Shown here in pieces: positions 2,286 through 30,476 of a stretch of 64,000 nt of DNA (position 1 is the stretch's first letter; every line of letters starts with the position of its first letter). The DNA comes from Escherichia phage phiWec179. The translations under genes were made by a program, and so were the position numbers. Under the pieces are notes generated by a model, which saw only the letters and a list, made by a program, of their open reading frames with translations, was not told where the DNA came from and did not search any database. The stretch lies in the sequence record LC739533.1; one strand, written 5' to 3'.

Positions 2286-2960
2286 CTATTTGATGTTCAG
2301 TTTGTTGAGCAGACGTTGAACCGTATAAGGGTGCCATGTGGTACTGCCACGAACGGTTTCAATTTTCTCTTCAGTAAAGATCTCTGCAATTCGAGTCAGA
2401 GATGCTCCTGCTTTCCTCATTAACGTCACTTTATCACGAAGCTTCTCTGCATACAAGACACTTTTATCATTTTTTCGAGGTTGTTTGTAGTCTTGACGTG
2501 ATTCTTTATACTTAGGGGAAGCAGATCCTAAAAGAACTCCTTTGCTCTTAGCTACTGCCAAACCTTTTTTGATACGATCTGCCATACCGCGAACTTCCTG
2601 TTCGGCGAGAACAGATAAAAGCTGGATAACCATCTTATCCGCATCTGGCATAATGGCGATCTTAACGTCGATCATTTCCAGCAAGATTGCTACCGAGGCG
2701 TTGTTACGACCTAAACGGTCCACTTTAGCTACCAGGAGGGTTGCTCCGGTAGCTTTACACATCTCAACAGCCTTGACAAGTTCTTTACGTTGCTTCCAGT
2801 CACCTTTACCTGAATAGAATTCAGAAAACTCTCCGATCACTTCAGCCTCCGGCACAGACTCCAAGAAGTAACGGATATCGTTCTCCTGACTCTGCATACC
2901 ATACTGGGCTTCGCCTTTCTTCTGTTTGGACAAACGGCTGTAAACAACAAACTTTTTCAT
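2286..2960 (-). CDS. serine recombinase (resolvase/invertase family)
   Basis: GAGGAG + ATG; YSRLS catalytic Ser box, VAKVDRLGR, MxIQLLSVLAEQE, C-terminal HTH; alignable by eye to gamma-delta resolvase. Confidence 0.8.
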   Translation of the reverse strand: MKKFVVYSRLSKQKKGEAQYGMQSQENDIRYFLESVPEAEVIGEFSEFYSGKGDWKQRKELVKAVEMCKATGATLLVAKVDRLGRNNASVAILLEMIDVKIAIMPDADKMVIQLLSVLAEQEVRGMADRIKKGLAVAKSKGVLLGSASPKYKESRQDYKQPRKNDKSVLYAEKLRDKVTLMRKAGASLTRIAEIFTEEKIETVRGSTTWHPYTVQRLLNKLNIK

Positions 2961-2970
2961 GATCAACTCC

Positions 2971-3177
2971 TCAATCGTTATTAGGCTTCCATTTTACAAA
3001 CTTGAAGCAGTTATTGTCAAGGAATTTATTGGCATCTTTTTCCTGTTTCCAAACGGTGCATTGTTCTTTAAGGGCTATCTGTTCATTCTGCACATCTGAT
3101 ACCACATCAGCAAGGAGGATCAGAAATCCCAAAAAGACCAACATCAATAACAGATTAAAGAAAGTTTGAAAACTCAT
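2971..3177 (-). CDS. small membrane protein
   Basis: GGAGG + ATG at 3177; hydrophobic FNLLLMLVFLGFLILL. Confidence 0.4.
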   Translation of the reverse strand: MSFQTFFNLLLMLVFLGFLILLADVVSDVQNEQIALKEQCTVWKQEKDANKFLDNNCFKFVKWKPNND

Positions 3178-3428
3178 GCGTCCTCCCATTTGATCCACAG
3201 AATCATTTCTTCAACGTAAACCTCTTTACCTTTGTTATTGATGAAAGTGTATTCTATGAACTCCGCTGTATACTTTTTGTTGTATTGCTCCGCTGCTGGG
3301 ATCGGACACTTTGTCATACGTGTCTCAACCCATTGACGATGAATCGTTGCCTTGTTTTTGGGGTCAAACGGGTGTAAATAGTGTGGTTCCCCACCCTGAC
3401 TTTGCCCCATCTTATTTTTCTTTGCCAT
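3174..3428 (-). CDS. hypothetical protein
   Basis: GGAGG + ATG at 3428 (MAKKNKMGQ). Confidence 0.4.
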   Translation of the reverse strand: MAKKNKMGQSQGGEPHYLHPFDPKNKATIHRQWVETRMTKCPIPAAEQYNKKYTAEFIEYTFINNKGKEVYVEEMILWIKWEDA

Positions 3429-3756
3429 GCTGCACCTCCTCCAGACGGTCATACACCCAAGCAAGACGATCGAAGTTTTTGTGTTGGGTGCCGGACTTCT
3501 TCTCAATCCAATAACAAGGAATCCAACCTGACAGATCCCACTCGCCATCGAACGGATAGTTCCATTCTAAACCTTCCGCTTCAAACTGCTCTACCATTTC
3601 ATCAGAAAGGGAAATATACAAATCTTGGTCTTCCCCGCAATACACTTCCACTGCATGACACAAACCGCAAGCTTTGATGTTTTCGTGCGGATCTTGGCCC
3701 ATAGCCTGATCCAACCACCACTCATAAAACTCCAGTAAAGCTTCACTTGATCTCAT
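3412..3756 (-). CDS. paralog family A protein
   Basis: GGAGGGG + ATG at 3756; LLEFYEWWL...GLCHAV...EQF...YPF...WV motif. Confidence 0.5.
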   Translation of the reverse strand: MRSSEALLEFYEWWLDQAMGQDPHENIKACGLCHAVEVYCGEDQDLYISLSDEMVEQFEAEGLEWNYPFDGEWDLSGWIPCYWIEKKSGTQHKNFDRLAWVYDRLEEVQHGKEK

Positions 3757-5582: not shown

Positions 5583-5903
5583 TCAACCAATTATTTCTTC
5601 TGCTATACGTTCTTTTACCCAGTTCACACGATCCACATTCAAATGACAACGGCTTCTTTCCGCTTCTAAGGTGTACTTTCCAAAATTACTGTTGAAAGGC
5701 AACACCATAACCAAATCTTTGCGGTAGAACTGCTCATGCATTTCATCCAGTACAGGTTCGTATCGTTCGCTTTCCCCCATATCGTAAAAATCATAGAGGT
5801 TCGAGCACAAACCTGTGCAACGGGTGAACGGTTCACCTTCAGGAGCACCAGCTTCCAACCATGCCAAATACGTGCGGTAAAATGTTAATAGTTCTTCGCT
5901 CAT
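5583..5903 (-). CDS. paralog family A protein
   Basis: AAGGAGAG + ATG at 5903; LLTFYRTYLAWLEAGAP...GLCSNL...HEQF...LPFN...HLNVDRVNWVKERI. Confidence 0.55.
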   Translation of the reverse strand: MSEELLTFYRTYLAWLEAGAPEGEPFTRCTGLCSNLYDFYDMGESERYEPVLDEMHEQFYRKDLVMVLPFNSNFGKYTLEAERSRCHLNVDRVNWVKERIAEEIIG

Positions 5904-6112
5904 TTCCACTCTCCTTCATGATAGTAAACCTCAAAAGAATAGTAAGTGAACATGCTCATTGTAACACCTCCCATTTCTGGATCAACGGAAGTGTTGTTAT
6001 ACATGTCAACTACTGCCTGACCCGCTGCTTTGGCATGTGCTGCCGAATCACAGGCACAAACATCTTTCTCCCACGGAAACTTGCCATCATACTTAAGACG
6101 GACAATCCACAT
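5900..6112 (-). CDS. hypothetical protein
   Basis: tiled ORF, 70 aa. Confidence 0.4.
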   Translation of the reverse strand: MWIVRLKYDGKFPWEKDVCACDSAAHAKAAGQAVVDMYNNTSVDPEMGGVTMSMFTYYSFEVYYHEGEWK

Positions 6113-6114
6113 GA

Positions 6115-6342
6115 TTATTCCTCCATCTTAAACCATTGAGGGAATACTTTACGGAAGACACGAGTTGCTTCCAAAAGGAATTCCAATTCTTTTTCCCGAT
6201 CTGCGTTCCAACCGTGTACTTTAACATTGATCGCCAGTGCATCAGCGCGCTGACTCAATGCTTGGCAAATCGGATCGCGCAACACTACCGCATCATAAAA
6301 CTGACAAACAGCTTCAAGTTCATACCAATTATAAGCAGCCAT
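6115..6342 (-). CDS. hypothetical protein
   Basis: tiled ORF, 75 aa. Confidence 0.4.
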   Translation of the reverse strand: MAAYNWYELEAVCQFYDAVVLRDPICQALSQRADALAINVKVHGWNADREKELEFLLEATRVFRKVFPQWFKMEE

Positions 6343-6668
6343 TATTCATTCTCCTCTGCAATACGATCTTTAACCCAATTAATCCTGTCCACGTTCAGGT
6401 GACAGGCATCTGCATCTGACTCTAAAACATATGCATCGTAGTTCTCATTGAAAGGGAGTTCTTGACTCAACCCTTTATAGTGGAACTGTGCGTGCATCTC
6501 ATCTGACAAGGTTATTATAATGAGATTGAAGCCATCCCTGTGCACATAATCGAACAAGTTGGCACACAAACCCACACTTGGCAGAAACGGTCTGCCATAA
6601 GGAGCACCATTTTCAATCCATGCCAGATACTTTTTGTAAAACTTCATCAACTCTTCACTTGTTTTCAT
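6342..6668 (-). CDS. paralog family A protein
   Basis: GAGGTGG + ATG; LMKFYKKYLAWIENGAP...GLCANL...HAQF...LPFN...HLNVDRINWVKDRI. Confidence 0.55.
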   Translation of the reverse strand: MKTSEELMKFYKKYLAWIENGAPYGRPFLPSVGLCANLFDYVHRDGFNLIIITLSDEMHAQFHYKGLSQELPFNENYDAYVLESDADACHLNVDRINWVKDRIAEENE

Positions 6669-18548: not shown

Positions 18549-18752
18549 TTAGATGATCTGCATATCCTCCACGATAATTTCTAATTTCCAAACAAGATGA
18601 TCTAAGCTCCCTGATAAAAATGATTCCGATACATAACCGCCATCGGACACCGTAGCAAGGATCTCGCCATTTGCTTGCTCTTTGATTTGAACATCCAGGC
18701 GGTTAGCCTTTGCTTTGTTCAGGACGGCGATCAAGCGGTTAGCTGTAGTCAT
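18549..18752 (-). CDS. hypothetical protein
   Basis: 67 aa; cassette upstream. Confidence 0.45.
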   Translation of the reverse strand: MTTANRLIAVLNKAKANRLDVQIKEQANGEILATVSDGGYVSESFLSGSLDHLVWKLEIIVEDMQII

Positions 18753-18770
18753 GGTGTTTTCCTTCCAGTC

Positions 18771-18830
18771 GTGAGCGGCACCATTGCCGCCCTACGTGAT
18801 ACATCTTACACTATCAGATACATTGTGCAA
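18771..18830 (-). promoter_or_regulatory. promoter + 5'UTR stem-loop cassette (PeSL-like)
   Basis: minus strand TTGCAC-N17-TAAGAT GTATCACGTAGG + hairpin GCGGCAATGGTGCCGC. Confidence 0.6.
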
Positions 18831-18836
18831 GCTATT

Positions 18837-19028
18837 TTAGATCTCGTCACCTATATAATCAGATCTGTTTTTCTCTGTCATACGCTTAAGCAATTCTTGC
18901 ATATGGCTTATAGCTTGCAATGTGTCTTCTTCCAGGCTTGAATCGAGATAATCAGGATCATTCTTTACCTTGCTATGGTTGTGATACCGCAACGCTGCTA
19001 ATACCTTTCTAACTTGTTCTGCATTCAT
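18837..19028 (-). CDS. hypothetical protein
   Basis: AAGGAG + ATG; 63 aa. Confidence 0.45.
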   Translation of the reverse strand: MNAEQVRKVLAALRYHNHSKVKNDPDYLDSSLEEDTLQAISHMQELLKRMTEKNRSDYIGDEI

Positions 19029-19171
19029 TTTTATTACTCCTTAAAACCAGGTGCCAACCGTTTCCAATAAGTCACTGACTACCAGAACAACATTGATTAG
19101 CACATATTTAATCAGGAAGGGGATTAGCGCCAGCGTCGCTACTATGATCCCCATTATGATGATTATTTTTC

Positions 19172-19462
19172 TCATGGTTGGCGGTTTACGTGGGCTTTAC
19201 CGTTTACGGTCATCGGTATGGCCTCAAGGTCTGGATCTTCCTTAAGGTCGCGTGCAAGCTCACCGCACCGGATACCCTCGAATCCGTGGTATTCTGTTTC
19301 CCCGTCCTTAAAAGTTTTAGCGGCAAGGCATAGGCGATAATTAACACCGATCCGGTTTACTGCGTTGATATCGGTTAACGTGATCGATTCCGGCAAATCG
19401 TTAGCCATTACAGGCGCGTTAATACCAACAACCAGGGCAACTACTGCGATCATCTTTTTCAT
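19172..19462 (-). CDS. small secreted protein
   Basis: signal-peptide-like MKKMIAVVALVVGINAPVMA. Confidence 0.5.
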   Translation of the reverse strand: MKKMIAVVALVVGINAPVMANDLPESITLTDINAVNRIGVNYRLCLAAKTFKDGETEYHGFEGIRCGELARDLKEDPDLEAIPMTVNGKAHVNRQP

Positions 19463-19491
19463 GTGTCTATCCTCTTCCTATTGCGTTTAAT

Positions 19492-19508
19492 GGGGGCGTT
19501 GCCGCCCC
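19492..19508 (-). promoter_or_regulatory. 5'UTR GC hairpin (no clear promoter)
   Basis: GGGGCGttgcCGCCCC upstream of 19172..19462. Confidence 0.4.
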
Positions 19509-19517
19509 GCTTATGGT

Positions 19518-19754
19518 TTATTGCTTGATGTTATGATGAAAGTTATTTTCTTCAACGGCTTTTAAAATAAAAGCCGTGATCGCTTTCGTGTCTACTTGTT
19601 CGAACGTATCAGAATAGCACCAATAATAATCATCCCCTACTTTCGGCGGGTAAACCTGGACAAGGAGATCCCCACCATGTTGATCTATAAGCTCAACATG
19701 TAAGCCGGATGATTCAGCGGTTTTAACGGCGTTTAATACTGTTGCAATACTCAT
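19518..19754 (-). CDS. hypothetical protein
   Basis: 78 aa. Confidence 0.45.
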   Translation of the reverse strand: MSIATVLNAVKTAESSGLHVELIDQHGGDLLVQVYPPKVGDDYYWCYSDTFEQVDTKAITAFILKAVEENNFHHNIKQ

Positions 19755-19773
19755 AATCTTTTCCTTTCTGATG

Positions 19774-19789
19774 TGGGGCGTTGCCGCCC
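19774..19789 (-). promoter_or_regulatory. 5'UTR GC hairpin (no promoter)
   Basis: GGGGCGttgcCGCCCC between 19799..20098 and 19518..19754. Confidence 0.4.
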
Positions 19790-19798
19790 CTTTGTTGA

Positions 19799-20098
19799 TT
19801 AGATCGCTGTTTCCAGTAGTTCGGCTAACGTCTTACCGCCTGATAGTTGGTCTAATGTTTGCTCTTCTGGCAAGAAATTAGCTGATATTAAACCGACTTG
19901 ATTCCCTTTGTGCCAGTTAGCCTGGCGGGTGATTCCATCCTTTAAGGATTTTACCGCCATTGTGCAACCGTCGCCAAATGATTCATTTTTATGGTCCATC
20001 ACTTCATAAGCGCCCAGCTTGCTGCTGTTAGGCACCATTAACGCGAATACATCACCAACAACCAGTTTTTCTACGGTAACAATAGCGATAGTTTCCAT
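19799..20098 (-). CDS. hypothetical protein
   Basis: 99 aa; cassette upstream. Confidence 0.5.
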   Translation of the reverse strand: METIAIVTVEKLVVGDVFALMVPNSSKLGAYEVMDHKNESFGDGCTMAVKSLKDGITRQANWHKGNQVGLISANFLPEEQTLDQLSGGKTLAELLETAI

Positions 20099-20116
20099 TT
20101 TGTTTTCCTCATTATC

Positions 20117-20173
20117 GGCGGCACCATTGCCGCCCTACGTGGTAAATATTATCACACTGGCGATCTGTGTCAA
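20117..20173 (-). promoter_or_regulatory. promoter + 5'UTR stem-loop cassette (PeSL-like)
   Basis: TTGACA-N17-TAATAT TTACCACGTAGG + hairpin GGCGGCAATGGTGCCGCC. Confidence 0.6.
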
Positions 20174-20179
20174 TACTTT

Positions 20180-20566
20180 TTATTCAATATAAATCAAATT
20201 ATCTTCACCAATGTAAGCCGACACGTCCGGCATGAATTTAGCGGCATTTGTTAGGCGGTTGGCTGTGTTAGTTGTGTATATTTCAGGGCGATCCCAAAAT
20301 CCTACGCCGTGACCGTTACGGGTAAAATGTAAATCATTGCCGATCTGGTTGGCTGTAGCGCCGTCGCTCATTGCCTCAGAGATAGCGGCAAGATTAGCAT
20401 TAATAAAGGCTGTTACATCTTGGGCGATTCGTTCATCCGCACCAGGAGAAAAATCATAATCGCCTAAGTTATCAATAAAATCACCTTCGTGATCCCTGGC
20501 TGATTCAGCAAAAATAAAAGCCTCTTTATAACCGTTGATGATTTCAATAATGATTTCTGTTTTCAT
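20180..20566 (-). CDS. hypothetical protein
   Basis: 128 aa. Confidence 0.5.
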   Translation of the reverse strand: MKTEIIIEIINGYKEAFIFAESARDHEGDFIDNLGDYDFSPGADERIAQDVTAFINANLAAISEAMSDGATANQIGNDLHFTRNGHGVGFWDRPEIYTTNTANRLTNAAKFMPDVSAYIGEDNLIYIE

Positions 20567-20787
20567 GCTGTACGCTCGACAATAATAATAGTTTGCGGGA
20601 TCTCGTTTTCTACTACTAACAAGGCTTTTTTCTGTGTGATAGATATTTTAACACGTTGTAAAGTAGCGGTAAAGTCTTTCATTTCGTTATGCGCCGACTT
20701 GCTGCAATGCCAGATCTCAGGCTTACCGACTTGTAAGCCGCGTAAAAATTCTGTTTTGCCTGTTTTGTTCGTGATCATCTGTTTCAC
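20563..20787 (-). CDS. hypothetical protein
   Basis: 74 aa. Confidence 0.45.
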   Translation of the reverse strand: MKQMITNKTGKTEFLRGLQVGKPEIWHCSKSAHNEMKDFTATLQRVKISITQKKALLVVENEIPQTIIIVERTA

Positions 20788-20788
20788 C

Positions 20789-20893
20789 TTAACCGATACC
20801 GTGGGAAGATAGGATCATATTAGCCATAGTTGCAACCACTCCAACCGATAACGCCAGGCCAACCACTGCAACCGTGAAAATTTTCTCTAACAT
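20789..20893 (-). CDS. small hydrophobic peptide (34 aa)
   Basis: GAGGG + ATG directly after cassette; MLEKIFTVAVVGLALSVGVVATMANMILSSHGIG; below ORF-track cutoff. Confidence 0.3.
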   Translation of the reverse strand: MLEKIFTVAVVGLALSVGVVATMANMILSSHGIG

Positions 20894-20911
20894 GATGCTA
20901 CCCTCATTAAT

Positions 20912-20974
20912 GGGCGTTGCCTTATTGCCCCGCCCTACAAGATGAATACTACGCGCTTATTTTGCTGTTGTCAA
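20912..20974 (-). promoter_or_regulatory. promoter + 5'UTR stem-loop cassette (PeSL-like, divergent)
   Basis: TTGACA-N17-TAGTAT + GC hairpin. Confidence 0.45.
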
Positions 20975-21139
20975 CAACGGGCGAAAAAACTTTTTGATCT
21001 GGCTTGCTGTTAGGCGCATATCTGCTTTGAGCGTTGCCAGGCGATAAGCTTTACCCTTAACCAGTTTATGGTGTCCGGTGCCGTTGCCGATGATAACATC
21101 AATTTCACACAATACGCGGGAAGCATCAATCTTTTTCAT
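20957..21139 (-). CDS. hypothetical protein
   Basis: 60 aa. Confidence 0.4.
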   Translation of the reverse strand: MKKIDASRVLCEIDVIIGNGTGHHKLVKGKAYRLATLKADMRLTASQIKKFFRPLLTTAK

Positions 21140-21159
21140 GTTGTTACCTTTCGTGTTAT

Positions 21160-21215
21160 GGGGCGCTTGTCGCCCCCTGTCTGATAAAGATAATCCCTTT
21201 CGGGATATCTGTCAA
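21160..21215 (-). promoter_or_regulatory. promoter + 5'UTR stem-loop cassette (PeSL-like)
   Basis: TTGACA-N17-TATCTT + hairpin GGGGCGACAAGCGCCCC. Confidence 0.5.
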
Positions 21216-21221
21216 CTATTT

Positions 21222-21407
21222 TTATTGTACGGTGTGGCGATCGCTGTATTCAGCGTAAAACTCACATCCATCGTCACGGCTATCAAGTTTAACGATGTAC
21301 CCGCTATTCCAACGTTCAACTGATACTACCGGATAATACTTCCCGTTAAGGATATTTTTCACCAGGTCGCCTTTTACCAGTTCTTTCGTTTTCTTATAAG
21401 TAGTCAT
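21222..21407 (-). CDS. hypothetical protein
   Basis: GAGAAAACATC + ATG at 21407 (MTTYKK). Confidence 0.45.
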   Translation of the reverse strand: MTTYKKTKELVKGDLVKNILNGKYYPVVSVERWNSGYIVKLDSRDDGCEFYAEYSDRHTVQ

Positions 21408-21427
21408 GATGTTTTCTCTTCTGTTTT

Positions 21428-21488
21428 GCGGTGGACCGTTCCGCCGCCCTATGTGGTAAACTATACGCGCCAACGTTCCAGGCGTCAA
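21428..21488 (-). promoter_or_regulatory. promoter + 5'UTR stem-loop cassette (PeSL-like)
   Basis: TTGACG-N17-TATAGT TTACCACATAGG + hairpin GCGGCGGAACGGTCCACCGC. Confidence 0.55.
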
Positions 21489-21606
21489 GCATATTTTTAA
21501 AATTATTTTCTACAACGTAAAACGCCCCAGCATAAGCCAGGGCGCACTAATTAAATCAGGTAGGGGGATTGCATTGCCTTACACCTTTTAGGCTGTTAGC
21601 TGGCGA

Positions 21607-21834
21607 TTAATAGCGTAGGATGTTTACACGCTCATCCCGCCCCAAGATATCCTCATATCTGTTTCCCCTTCCTTCGTACCAGATGATCACGGTATGAGGA
21701 TCAAACGGATTGTTTTCGATAGCCGTTACCTTGCAGAAGTCATAAGACGGGAACGGATAAACGCCAACCTGTAAACGCGCCCGATCTCCTGGGCGAATGG
21801 TAGCGGCACGATCTGCAATGATATTGTTATACAT
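21607..21834 (-). CDS. hypothetical protein
   Basis: 75 aa. Confidence 0.45.
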   Translation of the reverse strand: MYNNIIADRAATIRPGDRARLQVGVYPFPSYDFCKVTAIENNPFDPHTVIIWYEGRGNRYEDILGRDERVNILRY

Positions 21835-21958
21835 GGTGCACCCCCTTAATATTTTTCTTTTTCTTTGCTTCCGTTCGTCTAAGGTTACGGCTTGACTTGT
21901 TACGCAAGGCGCTCAAATCATCATAACCTTTAAAAGGTTGCATATTGTTCGGATTCAT
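21827..21958 (-). CDS. small basic protein (start uncertain)
   Basis: AAGGGG + ATG at 21958; Lys/Arg-rich C-terminus. Confidence 0.3.
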   Translation of the reverse strand: MNPNNMQPFKGYDDLSALRNKSSRNLRRTEAKKKKNIKGVHHV

Positions 21959-21968
21959 GCTACGCCCC

Positions 21969-22247
21969 TTAACGGTTATAGATATTGTGGATAGTGATAA
22001 AGGCGCTACGGTCATAAGCTGCCAAATCGGGATTGATCCAAGTGTTATCTAATAGTGTTTCAAGGATAATAGACTCATCATGAATAGCATCATAGAAATC
22101 AGGGTTAATAATGGTGTCAATGTCGCTTTCTGTTAACTCTACATTCAGCTTGCAAACCGCTTGCAAATCGGCTTCACGCTTCCAATCTTGCAGATTAGTA
22201 GTCAGAATGTTGGTGATCTCTTCGGTAGATAATTTGGTGATGGTCAT
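21969..22247 (-). CDS. hypothetical protein
   Basis: 92 aa; cassette upstream. Confidence 0.5.
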   Translation of the reverse strand: MTITKLSTEEITNILTTNLQDWKREADLQAVCKLNVELTESDIDTIINPDFYDAIHDESIILETLLDNTWINPDLAAYDRSAFITIHNIYNR

Positions 22248-22265
22248 GATATTTTCTCTCTGTTA

Positions 22266-22323
22266 GGCGGGGCGCTTGTCGCCCCTATGTGATACATCTT
22301 ATCAGGTTGATTCAGCTTGTCAA
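22266..22323 (-). promoter_or_regulatory. promoter + 5'UTR stem-loop cassette (PeSL-like)
   Basis: TTGACA-N17-TAAGAT GTATCACATAGG + hairpin GGCGACAAGCGCCCCGCC. Confidence 0.6.
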
Positions 22324-22329
22324 TACTTT

Positions 22330-22536
22330 TTAACGTGTCGCGTAAATAATATTACTTGCCGGACTACTGCAAACCAGGTTAAGCGGCTTGCTGTTATATT
22401 GCATCTTGTCGGCTTGTTTGCTTGCTGCGATGATTCCATCTATTACACGTTGCAAACTAACCTTTACCGCCTTTTTTGCCAACCGTTGACGCTTTACCAG
22501 TGCCTGGATCTTTTTCTTGTCTGCGTTGCTTAACAT
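22330..22536 (-). CDS. hypothetical protein
   Basis: 68 aa. Confidence 0.45.
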   Translation of the reverse strand: MLSNADKKKIQALVKRQRLAKKAVKVSLQRVIDGIIAASKQADKMQYNSKPLNLVCSSPASNIIYATR

Positions 22537-22545
22537 GGTGCGCCC

Positions 22546-22725
22546 TTACTTGTTAGCCGGATTGTATGCCAGGATCGCGCCGCTTGCTTTCACGCTTTCA
22601 TCTTCATAGTTGCGCAGATCGTTTTCTGTAAGATTGAGCGCGATCACTTCCTCGATCTCAATGCCAGTGGCAAGGGCGATCTCTTTAATGATGTTTGATG
22701 ATCTGATAACGTTTACTGTTTTCAT
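22546..22725 (-). CDS. hypothetical protein
   Basis: AAGGTG + ATG at 22725 (MKTVNVIRSS). Confidence 0.4.
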   Translation of the reverse strand: MKTVNVIRSSNIIKEIALATGIEIEEVIALNLTENDLRNYEDESVKASGAILAYNPANK

Positions 22726-22735
22726 GGTGTGCACC

Positions 22736-22855
22736 TTATAAGATGATTGATAAGATAGTGATAACGAAAGCGATAACACCAACGGCGATCGTAGTCTTAC
22801 GCCCTTCGGATACTGCCGGATTCTCTACCGTGTATTCTACTGTGTATTTGTTCAT
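22736..22855 (-). CDS. small membrane peptide (39 aa)
   Basis: GAGAGGATAACACA + ATG; hydrophobic C-terminus IAVGVIAFVITILSIIL; below ORF-track cutoff. Confidence 0.3.
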   Translation of the reverse strand: MNKYTVEYTVENPAVSEGRKTTIAVGVIAFVITILSIIL

Positions 22856-22878
22856 TGTGTTATCCTCTCGCTTGCTTT

Positions 22879-22935
22879 GAGAACTATTCCCGCCGCCCTA
22901 TGAATTAAATATACACTATCCCAAAATGATTGCAA
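22879..22935 (-). promoter_or_regulatory. promoter + 5'UTR structured cassette (divergent)
   Basis: TTGCAA-N17-ATATTT AATTCATAGGGCGGCGGG. Confidence 0.4.
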
Positions 22936-22954
22936 GCCTTTTTCTAAATTATTT

Positions 22955-23239
22955 TTATGCAGTAAACAGACCATCATTTACAACGGCGGCGATGATCTCC
23001 CGTGCCATTGATTCAGGGAACGGGGCGCTATAGTCCTGGCTTGTCTCGTCGCTGTCTGTTACCCAATGATAAGCCAACGAGTAAAAGCCTTTACTCCCTG
23101 TTTTCAGTGAAACGATGATCACTCGGTTAAGTCCATCGGTAAACGTTGCCGTTAATGTGTTATCATCTTGCGTCATGTTGGACAAGTAAGCGGCATCATT
23201 AACCAGGGAAAACAGTAGCACCGTGTTAGCTTTAACCAT
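22955..23239 (-). CDS. hypothetical protein
   Basis: GAGGAT + ATG at 23239 (MVKANTVLLF). Confidence 0.45.
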   Translation of the reverse strand: MVKANTVLLFSLVNDAAYLSNMTQDDNTLTATFTDGLNRVIIVSLKTGSKGFYSLAYHWVTDSDETSQDYSAPFPESMAREIIAAVVNDGLFTA

Positions 23240-23258
23240 GATTTGATCCTCAAACGGG

Positions 23259-23310
23259 CGCGGCACCATTGCCGCCCTACGTAATACACTTTACCTTATT
23301 TCTTCCAAAA
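23259..23310 (-). promoter_or_regulatory. promoter + 5'UTR stem-loop cassette (PeSL-like)
   Basis: TAAAGT -10, GTATTACGTAGG + hairpin GCGGCAATGGTGCCGC; -35 weak, overlaps upstream gene end. Confidence 0.45.
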
Positions 23311-23496
23311 AGCAAGTTTATTTGCAATTGGTGACAAATAACGTTTACCCGCGTAAAACAGTACAGCGACACTAACCACGGCGGCGATCTCATGCATAGC
23401 CGACGGGAAACGAGTATCATAATAAGATCCAATAATAGCAATAGCGGCAACGGCTGCAACGTCGATAATGATTTTTTCTTGTTTTGCGGTGATCAT
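23296..23496 (-). CDS. small membrane protein
   Basis: hydrophobic VAAVAAIAIIGSYY and VVSVAVLFYAG. Confidence 0.45.
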   Translation of the reverse strand: MITAKQEKIIIDVAAVAAIAIIGSYYDTRFPSAMHEIAAVVSVAVLFYAGKRYLSPIANKLAFWKK

Positions 23497-23516
23497 AATA
23501 TTTACCTTTTTGTATG

Positions 23517-23578
23517 GTGGGGGGAACTATTCCCCGCCCTGATGTAATACAGTTTAACAGATCCGGTTATAGTGTCAA
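23517..23578 (-). promoter_or_regulatory. promoter + 5'UTR stem-loop cassette (PeSL-like)
   Basis: TTGACA-N17-TAAACT GTATTACATCAGGGCGG + hairpin GGGAATAGTTCCCC. Confidence 0.55.
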
Positions 23579-23584
23579 CCACTT

Positions 23585-23770
23585 TTAAAGATATTTTATA
23601 CTGATAACATTTTCCGGTTTAACCTGGTTGTGATAAGCATCAATGTAAATCAAACCATCGTTAGAAACGCCCAGGATCACGCCTTGCGCAATAAAACCGT
23701 ATCGGTCGCGGTAACGTGCCGCCACTTTGTTCGCTGCGTTGTAGGCTGTTTTAATCTCGTTTAAGGTCAT
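23585..23770 (-). CDS. hypothetical protein
   Basis: 61 aa. Confidence 0.45.
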   Translation of the reverse strand: MTLNEIKTAYNAANKVAARYRDRYGFIAQGVILGVSNDGLIYIDAYHNQVKPENVISIKYL

Positions 23771-23797
23771 GTGCTGTTATCCTCTCGTTAGATATAA

Positions 23798-23828
23798 GAA
23801 AGGGCGCTATTTGCGCCCTTGATTTGTT
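23798..23828 (-). terminator. intergenic hairpin (terminator/attenuator-like)
   Basis: AAGGGCGCtatttGCGCCCTT, same motif family as 17023 and 17588. Confidence 0.4.
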
Positions 23829-23975
23829 TTAGTCTTCCAGGTCCATCCATGCACGTTTCTCGGTGCGGTCGCGCTTAGTTTTGTTGCGCTTGTCGCCCTT
23901 GCGGATCACTTCTTCATTCCACGCTGCGCGTGTTTTAGAAGATTGGATTTTTTCGGCGCGATTAGATGTATTCAT
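23829..23975 (-). CDS. small basic protein (48 aa)
   Basis: GAGGAAACATC + ATG after cassette; MNTSNRAEKIQSSKTRAAW...; below ORF-track cutoff. Confidence 0.35.
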   Translation of the reverse strand: MNTSNRAEKIQSSKTRAAWNEEVIRKGDKRNKTKRDRTEKRAWMDLED

Positions 23976-23995
23976 GATGTTTCCTCTTTTTAGTT

Positions 23996-24056
23996 GTGAG
24001 CGGCACCATTGCCGCCCTACGTGTTTTAATTTACTTTATTGTTTGATGCCTGTCAA
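23996..24056 (-). promoter_or_regulatory. promoter + 5'UTR stem-loop cassette (PeSL-like)
   Basis: TTGACA-N17-TAAATT + hairpin GCGGCAATGGTGCCGC. Confidence 0.55.
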
Positions 24057-24073
24057 CTACTTTTAAAAACTTT

Positions 24074-24427
24074 TTATTCGTGGGAAAGTGTAAGGATCAC
24101 ACCTGCAATATATAACCAATAGTTTTCCCTTTCTTTCTGGATCTTGTTTTCGCTACTACGCTCGTTAATGTACCCCCAGGATGTTAACAACCGATCTACT
24201 TCCCAATACTCGAAAGCTATATTAATATTTGACGGTAAACCTTGTAACCATGATGCTATTGCTCTGATAATGTTATGATCGTAACGTTTTTGATTATCGG
24301 TGTACCAATATTCAGATTTAAAACAGCGCATCAATTCCGCGATCTTCTCTTTCTCTTCTGTGATGCCATACTCGCTATAATCAATTGAGGCCAGAATATA
24401 AAGTTTAATTGCATTTTGTGCTTTCAT
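24074..24427 (-). CDS. hypothetical protein
   Basis: 117 aa; cassette upstream. Confidence 0.5.
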   Translation of the reverse strand: MKAQNAIKLYILASIDYSEYGITEEKEKIAELMRCFKSEYWYTDNQKRYDHNIIRAIASWLQGLPSNINIAFEYWEVDRLLTSWGYINERSSENKIQKERENYWLYIAGVILTLSHE

Positions 24428-24444
24428 GGTGTCTCTCTTCTGTT

Positions 24445-24504
24445 GTGAGCGGCACCATTGCCGCCCTATGTGTTACATCTTACCGGATTTTTAAAACTTG
24501 TCAA
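24445..24504 (-). promoter_or_regulatory. promoter + 5'UTR stem-loop cassette (PeSL-like)
   Basis: TTGACA-N17-TAAGAT GTAACACATAGG + hairpin GCGGCAATGGTGCCGC. Confidence 0.6.
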
Positions 24505-24726
24505 TCATTTTTCTACTATCATTTGATAACCTGTTTCAAGGTTAGTAAACACCGTGATCCCGTCCTGGCGTTCACTCATAAGCAAGCAAGGCGCTAACAT
24601 CCTTCCTACTTCCTTGCACTCGTTATAAGCGGCGGTAATGTCTCCCGCTGCTTTGTCTTCTGTGGTGAATGTATCGTTTACGTAAACTTTACCAGCGACA
24701 ACGGCGACAATAGCAAAAGTGATCAT
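24505..24726 (-). CDS. hypothetical protein
   Basis: GAGGAAAACATC + ATG at 24726 (MITFAIVAV). Confidence 0.45.
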   Translation of the reverse strand: MITFAIVAVVAGKVYVNDTFTTEDKAAGDITAAYNECKEVGRMLAPCLLMSERQDGITVFTNLETGYQMIVEK

Positions 24727-24804
24727 GATGTTTTCCTCTTTGTGTTTTTCGTTTTGATTAGTTGATAATACAGCAATTCGCAGATTAGTCTTTAGCAATT
24801 CATG

Positions 24805-25023
24805 CTATTTACTCACAACAGTATCGAAAACAAATTTTTCTTTGTTGTCGAAGCTAACATATCCGATTCGACCACGCAAGCCGCCAGTAGTGCCGTATTC
24901 GTAACCATCAAGGCCTTTAACCTTCCAATCCGTACCCATTAAAACCGCATTATATTTCTGACCAACTACAAACGCGCCACCAGTTGATTCAATGCAAACA
25001 ACTTTAATTTTACGGATTGCCAT
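24805..25023 (-). CDS. hypothetical protein
   Basis: 72 aa. Confidence 0.45.
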   Translation of the reverse strand: MAIRKIKVVCIESTGGAFVVGQKYNAVLMGTDWKVKGLDGYEYGTTGGLRGRIGYVSFDNKEKFVFDTVVSK

Positions 25024-25101
25024 TTTCTTTCTCTCTTTGTGGTGATTGGTTTCTCTTCTCTATAGCGCCCATTATAAGGCGCTATAACGAAAAGTCAACG
25101 A

Positions 25102-25269
25102 TTATTTTTTACGGCTTAAGGTGCCCAAGTTATCAGCGTGACGCAGACCAGGGAAGATCCAAGCGCCGGATTCATCTTTTACAGGTGCCTTAACACTTGC
25201 GCCCAGGTTGGCGGCGTTAACTTTACGTGCTACGTTGCGAGCGGCTTCACGGGTAGTAAAAGTAATCAT
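25102..25269 (-). CDS. small protein (55 aa)
   Basis: GAGGAAAACATC + ATG (MITFTTREAARNV...), same initiation module as 24505..24726; below ORF-track cutoff. Confidence 0.35.
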   Translation of the reverse strand: MITFTTREAARNVARKVNAANLGASVKAPVKDESGAWIFPGLRHADNLGTLSRKK

Positions 25270-25293
25270 GATGTTTTCCTCTTCTCTTTGTTA

Positions 25294-25355
25294 GGCGGTG
25301 GACCATTCCGCCGCCTTGATGTAATACAGTTTACTCTATTTTTATTTCTTTGCAA
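25294..25355 (-). promoter_or_regulatory. promoter + 5'UTR stem-loop cassette (PeSL-like)
   Basis: TTGCAA-N17-TAAACT GTATTACATCAAGG + hairpin CGGCGGAATGGTCCACCGCC. Confidence 0.55.
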
Positions 25356-25500
25356 CTACTTTTATATTTTCTTTCTTTGCCTCTTCCACCTGGTCCGCCC
25401 ACTGCTTACCCCACGTTTGAGCGTTATAGTGATATTGACAAAGAGCAACACCACGTTTTAAACCAGCGATAGACTTTTTACCACATTGACAAGTTTTCAT
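25345..25500 (-). CDS. small Cys-containing protein (51 aa, tentative)
   Basis: ATG at 25500 (MKTCQCGKKS...); weak SD; 3' end overlaps cassette. Confidence 0.25.
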
Positions 25501-25511
25501 TTTGTGATCCC

Positions 25512-25724
25512 TTAGTTGATGATAGTCAGTGTAAAATTATAATCACCATTCTTATATAACACCATATTACCGAAGGTGCCGACTCGACGCATATCCATAC
25601 GGATACCTATAACATCTTTAACGTCTTTAATGTTTTTAACGCCCGTGATATCTTTATTAAAATATTCCTCGTCTGAAAATAAAACTTGACTTGCATTTTT
25701 TAACAGTGTGCGGATATTAGCCAT
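25512..25724 (-). CDS. hypothetical protein
   Basis: 70 aa; cassette upstream. Confidence 0.45.
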   Translation of the reverse strand: MANIRTLLKNASQVLFSDEEYFNKDITGVKNIKDVKDVIGIRMDMRRVGTFGNMVLYKNGDYNFTLTIIN

Positions 25725-25745
25725 CGTGATAATCTCTCTTCTGTT

Positions 25746-25805
25746 GTGAGCGGCACCATTGCCGCCCTACGTAATACAGTTTACTCTTTTTCTTTCCGGT
25801 GTCAA
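25746..25805 (-). promoter_or_regulatory. promoter + 5'UTR stem-loop cassette (PeSL-like)
   Basis: TTGACA-N17-TAAACT GTATTACGTAGG + hairpin GCGGCAATGGTGCCGC. Confidence 0.6.
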
Positions 25806-25813
25806 CAATCTTT

Positions 25814-26041
25814 TTAGATTAATTCGTCCAGGCATAACAGGCGATCAACGTTGAGATCGGTCAGGCTGATGGTTGGCACCTGATAAGATTCGATGTACTC
25901 GACGCTTGCATATTCCCCAAAGTTAGCAATAGCCCACTTATTCAAGATCTCACATACATCATTAATCTTTTTGTTTGTTACAACTGCAATAACCTGGGAA
26001 GTGCCAACGGTGCCGGATACGCGAACAATATTGATAGCCAT
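25814..26041 (-). CDS. hypothetical protein
   Basis: 75 aa; cassette upstream. Confidence 0.45.
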   Translation of the reverse strand: MAINIVRVSGTVGTSQVIAVVTNKKINDVCEILNKWAIANFGEYASVEYIESYQVPTISLTDLNVDRLLCLDELI

Positions 26042-26061
26042 GATTTTTCTCTCTTCTGTTA

Positions 26062-26119
26062 GGCGGGGCGCTTGTCGCCCCTATGTGATACATCTTACAC
26101 TAATTTAAAACTTTGTCAA
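26062..26119 (-). promoter_or_regulatory. promoter + 5'UTR stem-loop cassette (PeSL-like)
   Basis: TTGACA-N17-TAAGAT GTATCACATAGG + hairpin GGCGACAAGCGCCCCGCC. Confidence 0.6.
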
Positions 26120-26214
26120 ATTATTTTCTATTTCTTCCGTAATAGCCCAATTTATGATCTAAGCTAAAACGTTTTGTGAGATAGGTCGAACGATGTTTCA
26201 TTTTTATGTCTCCT

Positions 26215-26454
26215 TTACATTCCAACCATAGCGGCGCGGATCGCGGTAGTGCTATACTTGAAACCGTCTGGAGTTTTATCTTGTCCAGTCTGTTCCAGAA
26301 AGAGCATCATATCACGCGCCGCATCGTTACGGTTAGAATTATAACTAATAAATTCTTTCGCGGTGCGGTATAATGATTCATCGTTATTAATCCAAAGGCT
26401 TACATTCCAATGAGTTTTGTTTTTGTGACCTAAGAACATTTTTGATTTAGCCAT
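26215..26454 (-). CDS. hypothetical protein
   Basis: 79 aa; cassette upstream. Confidence 0.45.
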   Translation of the reverse strand: MAKSKMFLGHKNKTHWNVSLWINNDESLYRTAKEFISYNSNRNDAARDMMLFLEQTGQDKTPDGFKYSTTAIRAAMVGM

Positions 26455-26475
26455 GATGTTAATCTCTTTTTCAGT

Positions 26476-26537
26476 GAGGCGGGAACTATTCCCGCGCCCT
26501 ATGTAATACAGTTTACTCTTTTTATTCGTGCTGTCAA
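26476..26537 (-). promoter_or_regulatory. promoter + 5'UTR stem-loop cassette (PeSL-like)
   Basis: TTGACA-N17-TAAACT GTATTACATAGG + hairpin CGGGAATAGTTCCCGCC. Confidence 0.55.
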
Positions 26538-26543
26538 TGCTTT

Positions 26544-26897
26544 TTATAAATCTTTTTTACGTTTTACATCGCTTGCATGACTGTATACAGCGATCCCATT
26601 ATCACGACAAAAACGGGTAAGGTATGATCCGCGTGAAAACTCTTTCCCTTCCAGGTCAACAACCTTGCTAAATTCTTCCAGGGCAACGGTATCAAAATGA
26701 TCACCATAACCATATTGAAACGGCACGTTAACAACTTCAATCAATTTACCGCCGATCTCAACGTCCACGCTTAAAGAAAAATATGTGTTACCGTAGGACT
26801 GTTGAAACCAGCGACGGGCGCTAATGTGAACGGCTTCAATCTCACCAATTTTAAATTGAGTGTTACCCAGGATCGCAACGTTGATATTTTTAGCCAT
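26544..26897 (-). CDS. hypothetical protein
   Basis: 117 aa; cassette upstream. Confidence 0.5.
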   Translation of the reverse strand: MAKNINVAILGNTQFKIGEIEAVHISARRWFQQSYGNTYFSLSVDVEIGGKLIEVVNVPFQYGYGDHFDTVALEEFSKVVDLEGKEFSRGSYLTRFCRDNGIAVYSHASDVKRKKDL

Positions 26898-26920
26898 GAT
26901 TTTTTCTCTCTTTTTGGTTA

Positions 26921-26974
26921 GTGGGAAGTGTTCCCGATAAAAGTTATTATGCTTATACTATCGTTTTTTGTCAA
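26921..26974 (-). promoter_or_regulatory. promoter + 5'UTR stem-loop cassette (divergent)
   Basis: TTGACA-N18-ATAATA + hairpin GGGAACACTTCCC. Confidence 0.45.
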
Positions 26975-26993
26975 TAGTATAAGACTAAAACTT

Positions 26994-27173
26994 TTAACGA
27001 TAATCATCGTAGGCTTTATTAACCTGGCGAATATAACATTCGAAAGCGAGATCAATAGAATCATATTCCCGCACATAATCCCCGTAAGAAACTACATACA
27101 CACCTTTTTGATCCTCAAACGTCATGATGATAGAATCCAGGCCGATGATTTCAGTTTTAGCGATGATAGTCAT
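26994..27173 (-). CDS. small protein (59 aa)
   Basis: ATG at 27173 after cassette (MTIIAKTEIIGLD...); below ORF-track cutoff. Confidence 0.35.
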   Translation of the reverse strand: MTIIAKTEIIGLDSIIMTFEDQKGVYVVSYGDYVREYDSIDLAFECYIRQVNKAYDDYR

Positions 27174-27194
27174 AATAATAACCTTTTTATTGTT

Positions 27195-27251
27195 GGCGGC
27201 ACCATTGCCGCCCTACGTGATAAACTATACCAGAATTTTAAACAGTGTCAA
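27195..27251 (-). promoter_or_regulatory. promoter + 5'UTR stem-loop cassette (PeSL-like)
   Basis: TTGACA-N17-TATAGT TTATCACGTAGG + hairpin GGCGGCAATGGTGCCGCC. Confidence 0.6.
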
Positions 27252-27261
27252 ACGTTTTTTC

Positions 27262-27507
27262 TTAGTTTGCGAAATATGGCGCGGCGGCTGATGCCGTTAA
27301 TCTCCAAGTGATTTGGCTATCGATCAAGTATTCTTCATTCTTGATCCGCACGGTATCAATCGAGAAGTTACTGAAAGGCTTGCTCTTGATTTTACGAACA
27401 ACCGTTACACGACGGTTATTTTTCATCTCTTTTAACTGAATCCAGGCGTAACCTTTTTCATTGACAAATATTTCATTGTGATTGGTGATAGATGATAAGT
27501 GTTTCAT
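27262..27507 (-). CDS. hypothetical protein
   Basis: 81 aa; cassette upstream. Confidence 0.45.
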   Translation of the reverse strand: MKHLSSITNHNEIFVNEKGYAWIQLKEMKNNRRVTVVRKIKSKPFSNFSIDTVRIKNEEYLIDSQITWRLTASAAAPYFAN

Positions 27508-27528
27508 GATTTTTCTCTCTTCTGTTTT

Positions 27529-27590
27529 GAGCGGTGGACCATTCCGCCGCCCTATGTGTTACATCTTACTACTTTTTTAAACATTGTCAA
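27529..27590 (-). promoter_or_regulatory. promoter + 5'UTR stem-loop cassette (PeSL-like)
   Basis: TTGACA-N17-TAAGAT GTAACACATAGG + hairpin GGCGGCGGAATGGTCCACCGC. Confidence 0.6.
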
Positions 27591-27598
27591 GGATATTT

Positions 27599-27880
27599 TT
27601 AACTATATGATCCACATCGTTCGCAGTAGTGATCATCGTCGTCATCTGCTACCTGGCTGATAAAATGATCTACCTTTGCTTTCAAATTATTATAATTGCT
27701 TTCTACTTCCTGTAGTCGTCGTTGGTAGTATTCCAGGGCTTGCACATAGGCCATTTGTTCGGTTTTAGCTTGCATAGCTAAATTCATGCCACGCGTTTCA
27801 TCGTATAACCAATAACCATCATTACATTCACTAATAGATAGTGTAGGGCTTAGTTTTTCGTGACGGATAACCTTGCTCAT
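27599..27880 (-). CDS. hypothetical protein
   Basis: 93 aa; C-terminal CERCGS. Confidence 0.45.
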   Translation of the reverse strand: MSKVIRHEKLSPTLSISECNDGYWLYDETRGMNLAMQAKTEQMAYVQALEYYQRRLQEVESNYNNLKAKVDHFISQVADDDDDHYCERCGSYS

Positions 27881-27890
27881 AGTGTGCCCC

Positions 27891-28001
27891 TTACTTCAAA
27901 ATGATTGTTGTGATAACTGCTACGGTGATCCAGAATGGAACAACTAAGATAATAGCGTTAATCGTTCCAACTGTCAAACTATTTTCTTTCTTGATCATCA
28001 T
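27891..28001 (-). CDS. small membrane peptide (36 aa)
   Basis: AAGGAAAAC + ATGATG; hydrophobic GTINAIILVVPFWITVAVITTIILK. Confidence 0.35.
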   Translation of the reverse strand: MMIKKENSLTVGTINAIILVVPFWITVAVITTIILK

Positions 28002-28008
28002 GTTTTCC

Positions 28009-28092
28009 TTACAGTGTCCAAAGAATGATTTCAAGTGCAGCACGGAAACCAGGAATAAAATTGATTGCAAAAAACAGGGAAGTAGTAAACAT
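28009..28092 (-). CDS. tiny hydrophobic peptide (27 aa, tentative)
   Basis: AAAGGA + ATG right after cassette; MFTTSLFFAINFIPGFRAALEIILWTL. Confidence 0.25.
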   Translation of the reverse strand: MFTTSLFFAINFIPGFRAALEIILWTL

Positions 28093-28110
28093 TTTTCTAT
28101 CCTTTCAGTT

Positions 28111-28170
28111 GTGAGCGGCACCATTGCCGCCTGATGAGTTAACTATAAGGGATCACGTTTTACCTGTCAA
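28111..28170 (-). promoter_or_regulatory. promoter + 5'UTR stem-loop cassette (PeSL-like)
   Basis: TTGACA-N17-TATAGT TAACTCATCAGG + hairpin CGGCAATGGTGCCG. Confidence 0.55.
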
Positions 28171-28724: not shown

Positions 28725-28984
28725 TATACACCCCTTTTAACAATCATTTCACACACAAGAAATAAGCTGGCGGAATCACGGCAAGGATAGAAAGATGTAC
28801 GATAATCTCTCACCCCTGCTTTTATGATCTCCGTGGTTTTACCTGATAGCACATTGTAAATAGTGTAACTTGTCGGACTGTTTTTATATACCTTGCCAGG
28901 GTAGATCATAACATAACGAGCAAGGTTATAAAATTCCTCGTTACGAAAGGCTATGATCTTCCCGCATACCTTAAGAAAGTGCAC
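28724..28984 (-). CDS. hypothetical protein
   Basis: 86 aa. Confidence 0.45.
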   Translation of the reverse strand: MHFLKVCGKIIAFRNEEFYNLARYVMIYPGKVYKNSPTSYTIYNVLSGKTTEIIKAGVRDYRTSFYPCRDSASLFLVCEMIVKRGV

Positions 28985-28994
28985 GTTAGCCCCC

Positions 28995-29267: not shown

Positions 29268-29287
29268 GATGATAATCTCTCTTAGTT

Positions 29288-29351: not shown

Positions 29352-29357
29352 TACTTT

Positions 29358-30465: not shown

Positions 30466-30476
30466 TCGGTAATTTT

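Follow-up and report, generated by a model that had tools for sequence, protein, structure and literature searches.

Escherichia phage phiWec181 (LC739534.1) is a lytic myovirus of the genus Phapecoctavirus (Stephanstirmvirinae) with a 154.5 kb genome, from pig-farm sewage, and close relatives of it have been described as virulent in two papers that state no recombinase to be present (PMC5374246, PMC10269720). Here we examine a 64,000-nucleotide stretch of Escherichia phage phiWec179 (LC739533.1), referred to in its full length as the window, which encodes a serine recombinase in its first 6 kb. These 6 kb are 100% identical to phiWec181; a few small genes are replaced or missing at 20571-22330, and the remainder of the window is 99-99.9% identical, colinear and on one strand. 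By this comparison, the window comes from a sibling isolate of phiWec181 with gene-level differences in the early gene array.

The sole published statement on the role of the gene is an untested guess about the SKA64 orthologue, which would maintain concatemers as single genomes (PMC10282059). In GenBank, orthologues are labeled 'hypothetical', 'DNA invertase', 'resolvase', 'serine recombinase', 'integrase' and 'methionine ABC transporter ATP-binding protein'; the last of these, present in at least nine records, and the label 'integrase' in Klebsiella phage KP2025 are both propagated misannotations. The phAPEC8 record already carries the note 'putative site-specific recombinase', and both the type of the gene and its occurrence in this group of phages had been recorded before.

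Phages of the genera Phapecoctavirus and Justusliebigvirus are therapy and biocontrol candidates, and screening pipelines read recombinase or 'integrase' domains as markers of temperance, an issue that is clarified by a conserved orphan recombinase without a trace of lysogeny. That a whole subfamily of virulent myoviruses retains an intact site-specific recombinase is a puzzle, for which a resolvase reading is plausible but unproven. The relocation of the gene, the replacement of one of its domains and its unexplained retention in a virulent lineage lend the locus modest interest.

A small serine recombinase of a distinct subfamily

The recombinase gene can be read from two starts in the list of open reading frames (ORFs), a TTG at 2966 that would yield 226 residues and the ATG listed in Table 1, which is preferred because a GAGGAG ribosome-binding site stands 6 nt upstream of it. 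The resulting protein is BDU12347.1 of phiWec181, labeled 'hypothetical protein' there, and 83 blocks of the public collection contain phage-sized contigs that encode exactly this protein.

An earlier reading of the letters alone (the sequence-only reading) had recognized a serine recombinase at 2286-2960, and this assignment is borne out by profiles, structures and catalytic residues alike. The Pfam Resolvase profile PF00239 matched residues 5-142 with positions 2-144 of its 145, at a level well outside chance (E=6e-17; 62.5 bits, the cut-off being 23.3 bits), PHROG 125 matched residues 1-223 on profile positions 19-205 of 254 (E=5.2e-32), and the best PDB sequence matches were the Tn3 and gamma-delta resolvases. 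The three catalytic motifs that had been quoted are all present in the translation, YSRLS at residues 7-11, VAKVDRLGR at residues 77-85 and MVIQLLSVLAEQE at residues 110-122. A first alignment of the protein included gamma-delta resolvase, Gin and 16 homologues, a second one 46 homologues. The region of the catalytic serine aligns formally, with S11 opposite S10 of gamma-delta resolvase, and R9, D81, R82 and R85 likewise correspond to R8, D67, R68 and R71 of that enzyme; across the 46 homologues R9, S11, D81, R82, R85, E122 and R129 are invariant.

An AlphaFold2 model built from 46 sequences has a mean predicted local distance difference test (pLDDT) score of 90.4. The top PDB matches of this model in Foldseek were the catalytic domains of Sin, gamma-delta resolvase and large serine integrases, the highest query-normalised template modeling score (TM-score) being 0.51, to the SPbeta large serine integrase (9dxh). 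Relative to gamma-delta resolvase and Gin, the alignment shows an insertion of ~10 residues directly after the nucleophile (SKQKKGEAQYGMQSQ), a shortened stretch before helix E and a different C-terminus; large serine recombinases typically have a post-nucleophile insertion of this kind. With its catalytic domain at the N-terminus (residues 5-142), the protein does not display the IS607-type order, in which a MerR-like helix-turn-helix (HTH) precedes the catalytic domain. No NCBIfam equivalog covers the recombinase (YneB scored 34 bits against a cut-off of 175, XisF 28 against 375), and a PADLOC scan returned no match for it. We conclude that the gene encodes a small serine recombinase of a distinct subfamily that is predicted to be catalytically competent.

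The sequence-only reading had also assigned a C-terminal HTH to the protein. What stands of this is a helical DNA-binding domain, modeled with high pLDDT at residues 149-221; the Hin-type HTH_7 domain was not found by Pfam even at E<=1. The sole C-terminal Pfam signal was PF07508 'Recombinase' at residues 181-219, which covered profile positions 13-50 of 102 and with 16.2 bits stayed below the cut-off of 21.1 bits. Positions 111-218 of the family profile aligned to residues 135-245 of the SPbeta integrase 9dxh with a whole-sequence E=2.4e-4 and no single stretch above threshold. The C-terminal helical unit appears to resemble the beginning of the 'recombinase domain' found in large serine recombinases.

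Distribution and relocation of the gene

In tblastn searches, the gene was found in 162 phage records, of which 106 are Escherichia records, with exactly one copy in each. Five records at 97% identity or more make up the phiWec181 clade, including one named Pseudomonas phage PsgM04F, and about 60 phAPEC8-type Phapecoctavirus isolates are all 74.6% identical to the query. Identities then fall to 55% in Justusliebigvirus, to 50-56% in relatives infecting Klebsiella and Serratia, and to 36-39% in Vibrio and Shewanella phages (37% in Shewanella phage 1/4). Some isolates of Vibrio phage ICP1 (MW794143/6/9, ~18.98-19.47 kb) have a match to the catalytic domain only, 34.5% over residues 1-152, annotated as hypothetical. 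Because the 106 Escherichia records that bear the gene match the 107 that share the structural module in a search with the tail region, the gene is effectively core to the Stephanstirmvirinae, and it is present as a single copy in essentially all members of this subfamily in the phage collection.

The location of the gene in an array of small genes of a lytic phage, as proposed from the sequence alone, is confirmed by the match to phiWec181 and by the flanks of the gene, where each of the ten ORFs is assigned to a PHROG without known function. The tightly packed array recurs in ten independent assemblies, from metagenomes or isolates, that encode the identical protein; only 10 nt separate the recombinase from the upstream ORF. 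A promoter of the form TTGACA...-10 lies 35-70 nt upstream of the gene in 6/6 lineages examined, at both of the genomic loci described below; it is conserved between phiWec181 and phAPEC8, whereas the farther flanks are unrelated. The copy of this promoter in the window is predicted to be dedicated to the recombinase gene.

The second locus is found in sister lineages. In Justusliebigvirus PaulScherrer, Klebsiella phage phi1_175008, a 157-kb metagenomic phage and Shewanella phage 1/4, the recombinase lies within a lysozyme-PhoH-...-recombinase-...-DprA-like block on the same strand, which also holds a phosphatase and, in Shewanella phage 1/4, a DNA ligase. phiWec181 keeps the lysozyme-PhoH-DprA-like block in identical gene order without the recombinase, which is instead found ~16 kb from this 'empty' locus, in the early small-gene array. 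The gap that remains in the block retains a degenerate promoter-like sequence and the AGGAGGGTAT ribosome-binding site, as seen just upstream of the recombinase in the sister genera. From these comparisons, we infer that the recombinase gene has moved, such that its locus in Phapecoctavirus differs from that of the sampled sister lineages, which had not been noted before. The lysozyme-PhoH-DprA-like block is the ancestral neighbourhood of the recombinase, and it is one of DNA metabolism.

Such a move raises the question of whether the gene is a selfish or vestigial passenger that hops or shuffles between loci and persists without contributing to lytic growth. Its presence at two different loci within one subfamily, the promoter-like sequence and ribosome-binding site left at the 'empty' locus, Phapecoctavirus flanks that are non-homologous between clades and one isolate with a disrupted copy would all be in keeping with a passenger. 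We nevertheless regard this explanation as unlikely: essentially all members of the subfamily carry the gene, in one copy each, and Shewanella phage 1/4 has it in the same neighbourhood, its catalytic residues are invariant, the loci seen are two and not many, and the indel is precise to the ORF, lies between ribosome-binding sites and is free of terminal repeats or element ends, which fits ordinary gene shuffling by short homology. Self-mobilisation of the gene was considered separately and rejected on the structure of the 'empty' locus, an ORF-precise gap between two ribosome-binding sites that shows no element ends.

Replacement of the DNA-binding domain

Comparison of the phiWec181-type recombinase with the phAPEC8 allele revealed two very different levels of conservation within one protein, with 95% amino acid identity in the catalytic part and 36% in the C-terminal 78 residues. 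At the nucleotide level, identity is about 81-85% from the promoter to approximately codon 145, drops to ~45% thereafter and recovers only in the last ~19 nt, which places a breakpoint near codon 145. Other pairs among the 46 homologues that share at least 90% identity in the catalytic domain are 69-100% identical in the DNA-binding domain, rendering the phiWec181/phAPEC8 pair a clear outlier. At least three types of DNA-binding domain are joined to catalytic domains that are more than 82% identical. By tblastn, the phiWec181 type of this domain occurs only in the five genomes of the phiWec181 clade, along with a relative at 49% identity in Citrobacter phage Tr1. These alignments indicate that the DNA-binding domain was replaced as a unit relative to the phAPEC8 allele, which likewise had not been noted before. 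The natural pair of alleles, with a shared catalytic domain and differing DNA-binding domains, constitutes a ready-made experiment for finding the target.

An exchangeable DNA-binding domain would also suit an enzyme that acts early in infection on non-self DNA, for instance the chromosome of the host, prophages or plasmids that reside there, or phages that infect the same cell, with the exchange retargeting the catalytic module. This idea draws on the domain swap and the gene's own host-type promoter: a sigma-70 promoter accompanies the gene at every locus, consistent with expression by the host polymerase, the DNA-binding domain evolves faster than the catalytic domain across the family in addition to the one outright replacement and the several domain types, and no cognate site is detectable in the phage genome. 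Yet in serine recombinases the DNA-binding domain generally diverges faster than the catalytic one, the ancestral neighbourhood of the gene is one of phage DNA metabolism, PADLOC offered no match, and neither a target nor a precedent is known to us; we regard action on non-self DNA as unlikely. The more specific proposition of a core, early-transcribed recombinase of strictly lytic phages that is retargetable by domain exchange, and is used on non-self DNA or drives modular exchange among co-infecting relatives in place of any classical task of a resolvase, invertase or integrase, strikes us as decidedly unlikely.

Inversion and integration

The sequence-only reading had offered a DNA invertase as one of two likely identities, together with gix/hix-like crossover sites as the feature to look for. 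A Hin/Gin/Cin-type enzyme would flip a segment of the phage, such as a tail-fibre or promoter switch. The name 'DNA invertase' is attached to PHROG 125, for which it is an annotation label of the cluster, Gin is among the best PDB profile matches of the catalytic domain, and a homologue in an Aeromonas prophage adjoins a baseplate-family gene. Against these stand the missing HTH_7 domain and the order of the DNA itself. The tail/baseplate region (25 kb) was compared with 134 matching phage records and displayed no inversion, all 60 listed rows being single colinear places. In the 10 kb on either side of the gene, order and orientation were the same in the 10 distinct places shown, from 24 contigs read, and no inversion separates the window from phiWec181, its closest relative. 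The first 6 kb of the window were found in 70 places in 69 records, and the strands of four large query blocks were mutually consistent in every close relative; for window 6-31 kb, extra matches from repeated promoters blur this inversion check in many records. Among family members in viral contigs, 77 of 80 loci lacked an inverted repeat of at least 18 bp within 4 kb on either side, and none of the 80 had one near the gene. Scans of the window and of the whole genome for gix/hix-like sites gave promoter units and terminators only. The invertase reading is not supported by these data, and we judge it very improbable.

In the Aeromonas prophage (record L006, 1780-3131 and 8194-11374), the homologue (42% identical) lies beside a gene of the T4_baseplate family, and two small genes separate it from a 448-aa large serine integrase that marks the end of the prophage. 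An element of 34 nt that contains a palindrome, TAGCGTCTGAAATAGAGGTGTATTTCAGATGGTA, occurs three times, 5-6 kb away.

That the enzyme is not a lysogeny integrase, as the sequence-only reading had argued, was upheld by searches of bacterial replicons. The 6-kb region had no match in 5,426 complete E. coli genomes, and 72,556 plasmids yielded no close, Phapecoctavirus-like copy of the recombinase, all matches being below 60% identity. An integrase that serves a hidden lysogenic or plasmid-like carrier state might be suspected from database records that name homologues 'integrase' and from the fact that tools which screen therapeutic phages flag resolvase domains. In addition to the empty searches, the protein stops at residue 224 without zinc-ribbon and coiled-coil domains, and the phages are described as virulent in the two papers cited at the outset. 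We consider the chance of such a state negligible, and for E. coli the integrase reading is effectively refuted and can be excluded.

Search for target sites

The sequence-only reading had not been able to identify a cognate site by eye, and searches with dedicated tools fared no differently. In the window and the 154-kb phiWec181 genome, the longest inverted repeats were only promoter units (TTGACA...TAAGAT...) and terminators composed of a GC hairpin and a T run, and every pair of similar imperfect palindromes detected genome-wide was a GC hairpin followed by a T run; these repeat searches could miss two short crossover sites that share less than ~20 bp.

Three candidates were examined and rejected. 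The first combines a cluster of AATAAC hexamers with an 11-bp inverted pair, CATCAATAACA, at window 2977-3243. This region is the top 300-bp window for the hexamer; its copies vary freely in close relatives, and an 11-bp inverted pair within 100 bp is expected by chance ~1.5 times per 64 kb. The second is a res-like site made of three palindromes, AATGAGAA-N3-TTCTCATT, at ~30350-30470 with spacings of 53 bp and 39 bp. Its DNA is conserved in 406 phage records, and it was rejected because genera such as Salmonella (59 records), Cronobacter and Pectobacterium are essentially absent among the recombinase matches, and on account of its odd-length center. The third, considered as a crossover site or operator, is a perfect 10-bp inverted repeat over the -10 element in Klebsiella phage phi1_175008, which sister lineages do not conserve.

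A repeat at that position would also be relevant if the protein were mainly a DNA-binding regulator, for instance an autorepressor, or a promoter of modular exchange between phages, for which recombination is secondary or lost. The recombinase promoter does lie directly upstream of the gene at all loci, as such a role would have it, and the phi1_175008 repeat is suitably placed; it is, however, confined to that lineage among its sisters, and the invariance of the catalytic residues in 46 homologues argues for retained chemistry. A primarily regulatory or exchange-promoting protein is therefore, in our estimate, improbable.

The palindromes of the second candidate belong to a non-coding gap of ~820 bp (window 30100-30916) that merits description in its own right. 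The gap contains a strong promoter, TTGACA-17-TATACT (plus strand, ~30099), a GC-rich and possibly structured stretch at 30140-30230, the Fur-box-like palindromes centered at ~30366, 30419 and 30458, of which the first is perfect (12+3+12), a pair of 43-nt direct repeats spaced 139 bp apart, and TTTGAGATA in three copies; it has no Rfam match. The DNA at ~30130-30440 is the part conserved in the 406 phage records, which include rV5-like phages, PVP-SE1, CR3, phiTE and even T5-like phages, and in the T5-like Salmonella phage bobsandoy the match falls in an annotated repeat_region near the start of the record. The gap could be an origin, a regulatory hub or a binding region for a shared host factor.

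A proposed resolvase-type reaction on phage DNA

Outside of phages, full-length homologues of the recombinase (33-39% identity, 97-99% coverage) are encoded on non-mobilizable plasmids of 5.8-7.3 kb beside genes for ParA and Rep; this arrangement, classical for a multimer resolvase, is the only functional hint for the subfamily. In viral contigs, the neighbours of family members are heterogeneous and include ParB, RepA, small terminases and, in nine contigs, a separate tyrosine integrase, such that the small recombinase is not the sole candidate integrase there. Directly upstream of the plasmid-borne homologue on Synechococcus plasmid pIITB3_2 (record L105, 4794-4857), there is a perfect 16-bp inverted repeat, CTTGTAACACCCTCAA ... 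TTGAGGGTGTTACAAG, with a third copy, TGTTACAC; these repeats are a candidate res site or operator for the subfamily.

We tentatively propose, with less than even confidence, that the recombinase acts in the manner of a resolvase on the replicating DNA of the phage itself, where two copies of a single site would recombine to give deletion or resolution. A dimer of the recombinase would bind an imperfect palindrome of ~26-30 bp that is present once per genome; the two copies of this site on a multimer would synapse, S11 would make 2-bp staggered cuts, and subunit rotation would follow. The outcome would be to monomerise circular or multimeric replication intermediates, or to help circularise a terminally redundant genome, as Cre/lox does for P1, and the reaction would neither invert a segment nor integrate the phage. 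This proposal is favored because of the context of the plasmid homologues, the ancestral DNA-metabolism neighbourhood, the invariant catalytic residues and the lack of a repeated site in the searches above, which a single site per genome would explain. The phiWec181 record has a terminal overlap of 148 bp that points to circular assembly.

Several observations weigh against a resolvase. A res-like site with several dimer subsites was not found beside the gene, where the gap is 10 nt and the conserved upstream element is the promoter, or elsewhere. Packaging from concatemers leaves a phage without an evident need to resolve multimers, and the swap of the DNA-binding domain between close relatives means that the site must have changed too. 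The plasmid context is an annotation-level observation and comes from homologues at 33-39% identity. In phage Schickermooser, moreover, the copy is split, with a 128-aa product and a tblastn match in two pieces, and the gene may be dispensable, at least in the laboratory.

Features of the locus and of the surrounding arrays

Coordinates of the recombinase gene, its parts and its signals are collected in Table 1, together with the 'empty' locus of phiWec181 and a set of paralogues that bracket the recombinase.

Table 1. Positions of the recombinase gene, its predicted signals and associated features; numbering is that of the window unless another record is named.
Feature	Position	Strand	Basis and remarks
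Recombinase coding sequence	2286..2960	-	ORF list; 224 aa; ATG 2960-2958, stop 2288-2286
Catalytic domain and long helix E	2523..2960	-	Residues 1-146; nucleophile S11; alignments, Foldseek
Basic linker and predicted C-terminal helical DNA-binding domain	2289..2522	-	Residues 147-224; weak PF07508, profile alignment, AlphaFold2 model
Putative ribosome-binding site GAGGAG	2967..2972	-	6 nt before ATG; overlaps the stop codon of the upstream ORF; read from sequence
Predicted sigma-70-type promoter TTGACA-18 nt-TAAAAT	2991..3020	-	Inside 3' end of the upstream ORF; 11/12 consensus matches in scan
Four paralogues	1948-2277, 3412-3756, 5583-5909, 6342-6668	-	Both scanned ones match PHROG 2510, unknown function
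'Empty' recombinase locus of phiWec181	Record L002 7494-7557, outside the window		64-bp gap between 67-aa and 63-aa genes

The four paralogous proteins have ~108-114 aa and share the motifs FY..YLAW and N.DR..WVK.R. Farther into the window, at ~18700-29500 (40-51 kb in the phiWec181 record), ~40 very small genes are spaced by near-identical direct repeats of 23-56 nt. These repeats are promoter units, TTGACA..TAAGAT followed by a GTAACACATAGGGCGG-like sequence, combined with GGCGGTGGACCATTCCGCCGCC hairpins, and one copy of the promoter unit is reversed, at window 52708-52751. An Rfam scan of the window returned no match.

Comparison with known systems

The Hin/Gin/Cin/Pin invertases (Mu, P1, e14) are phage-borne small serine recombinases like the present enzyme, to which databases often apply their name, and its catalytic domain aligns with the Gin structures 4m6f and 3uj3 (E about 1e-15, family profile). 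Unlike these, the recombinase lacks a Hin-type HTH, is neither flanked by inverted crossover sites nor adjoined by an invertible tail-fibre segment, and shows no orientation polymorphism.

In large serine recombinases, the zinc ribbon and the coiled coil define attP/attB selectivity. With members of this group such as SPbeta SprA, Bxb1 and phiC31, the recombinase shares the insertion after the serine and a C-terminal unit that aligns with the first ~65 residues of the recombinase domain. Large serine recombinases are typically longer than 400 aa, whereas the present protein ends at residue 224 and has neither the remainder of that domain nor a zinc ribbon or coiled coil, and there is no lysogeny. 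The compact layout, in which 224 residues include a DNA-binding unit like that of large serine recombinases, could interest recombinase engineers.

The likeness to Cre/loxP of phage P1 is a functional analogy only, that of a phage recombinase proposed to cyclise terminally redundant DNA and resolve multimers with one site per genome. Cre differs in being a tyrosine recombinase of a temperate plasmid-prophage, and the present phage, in which no site was found, is not known to have a circular maintenance state.

Relative to the Tn3, gamma-delta and Sin resolvases, the recombinase differs in its non-HTH_7 C-terminus, in the 10-residue insertion after the nucleophile and in the shortened region before helix E; it has no multi-subsite res upstream and no transposase or plasmid context, its host replicon being a 154-kb lytic phage. 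In common with these resolvases it has the catalytic fold and residues and a similar size, and they provide its best sequence and Foldseek matches in the PDB. Like the Sin and ParA-type resolvases, furthermore, distant full-length homologues of the recombinase reside on small plasmids beside partition genes.

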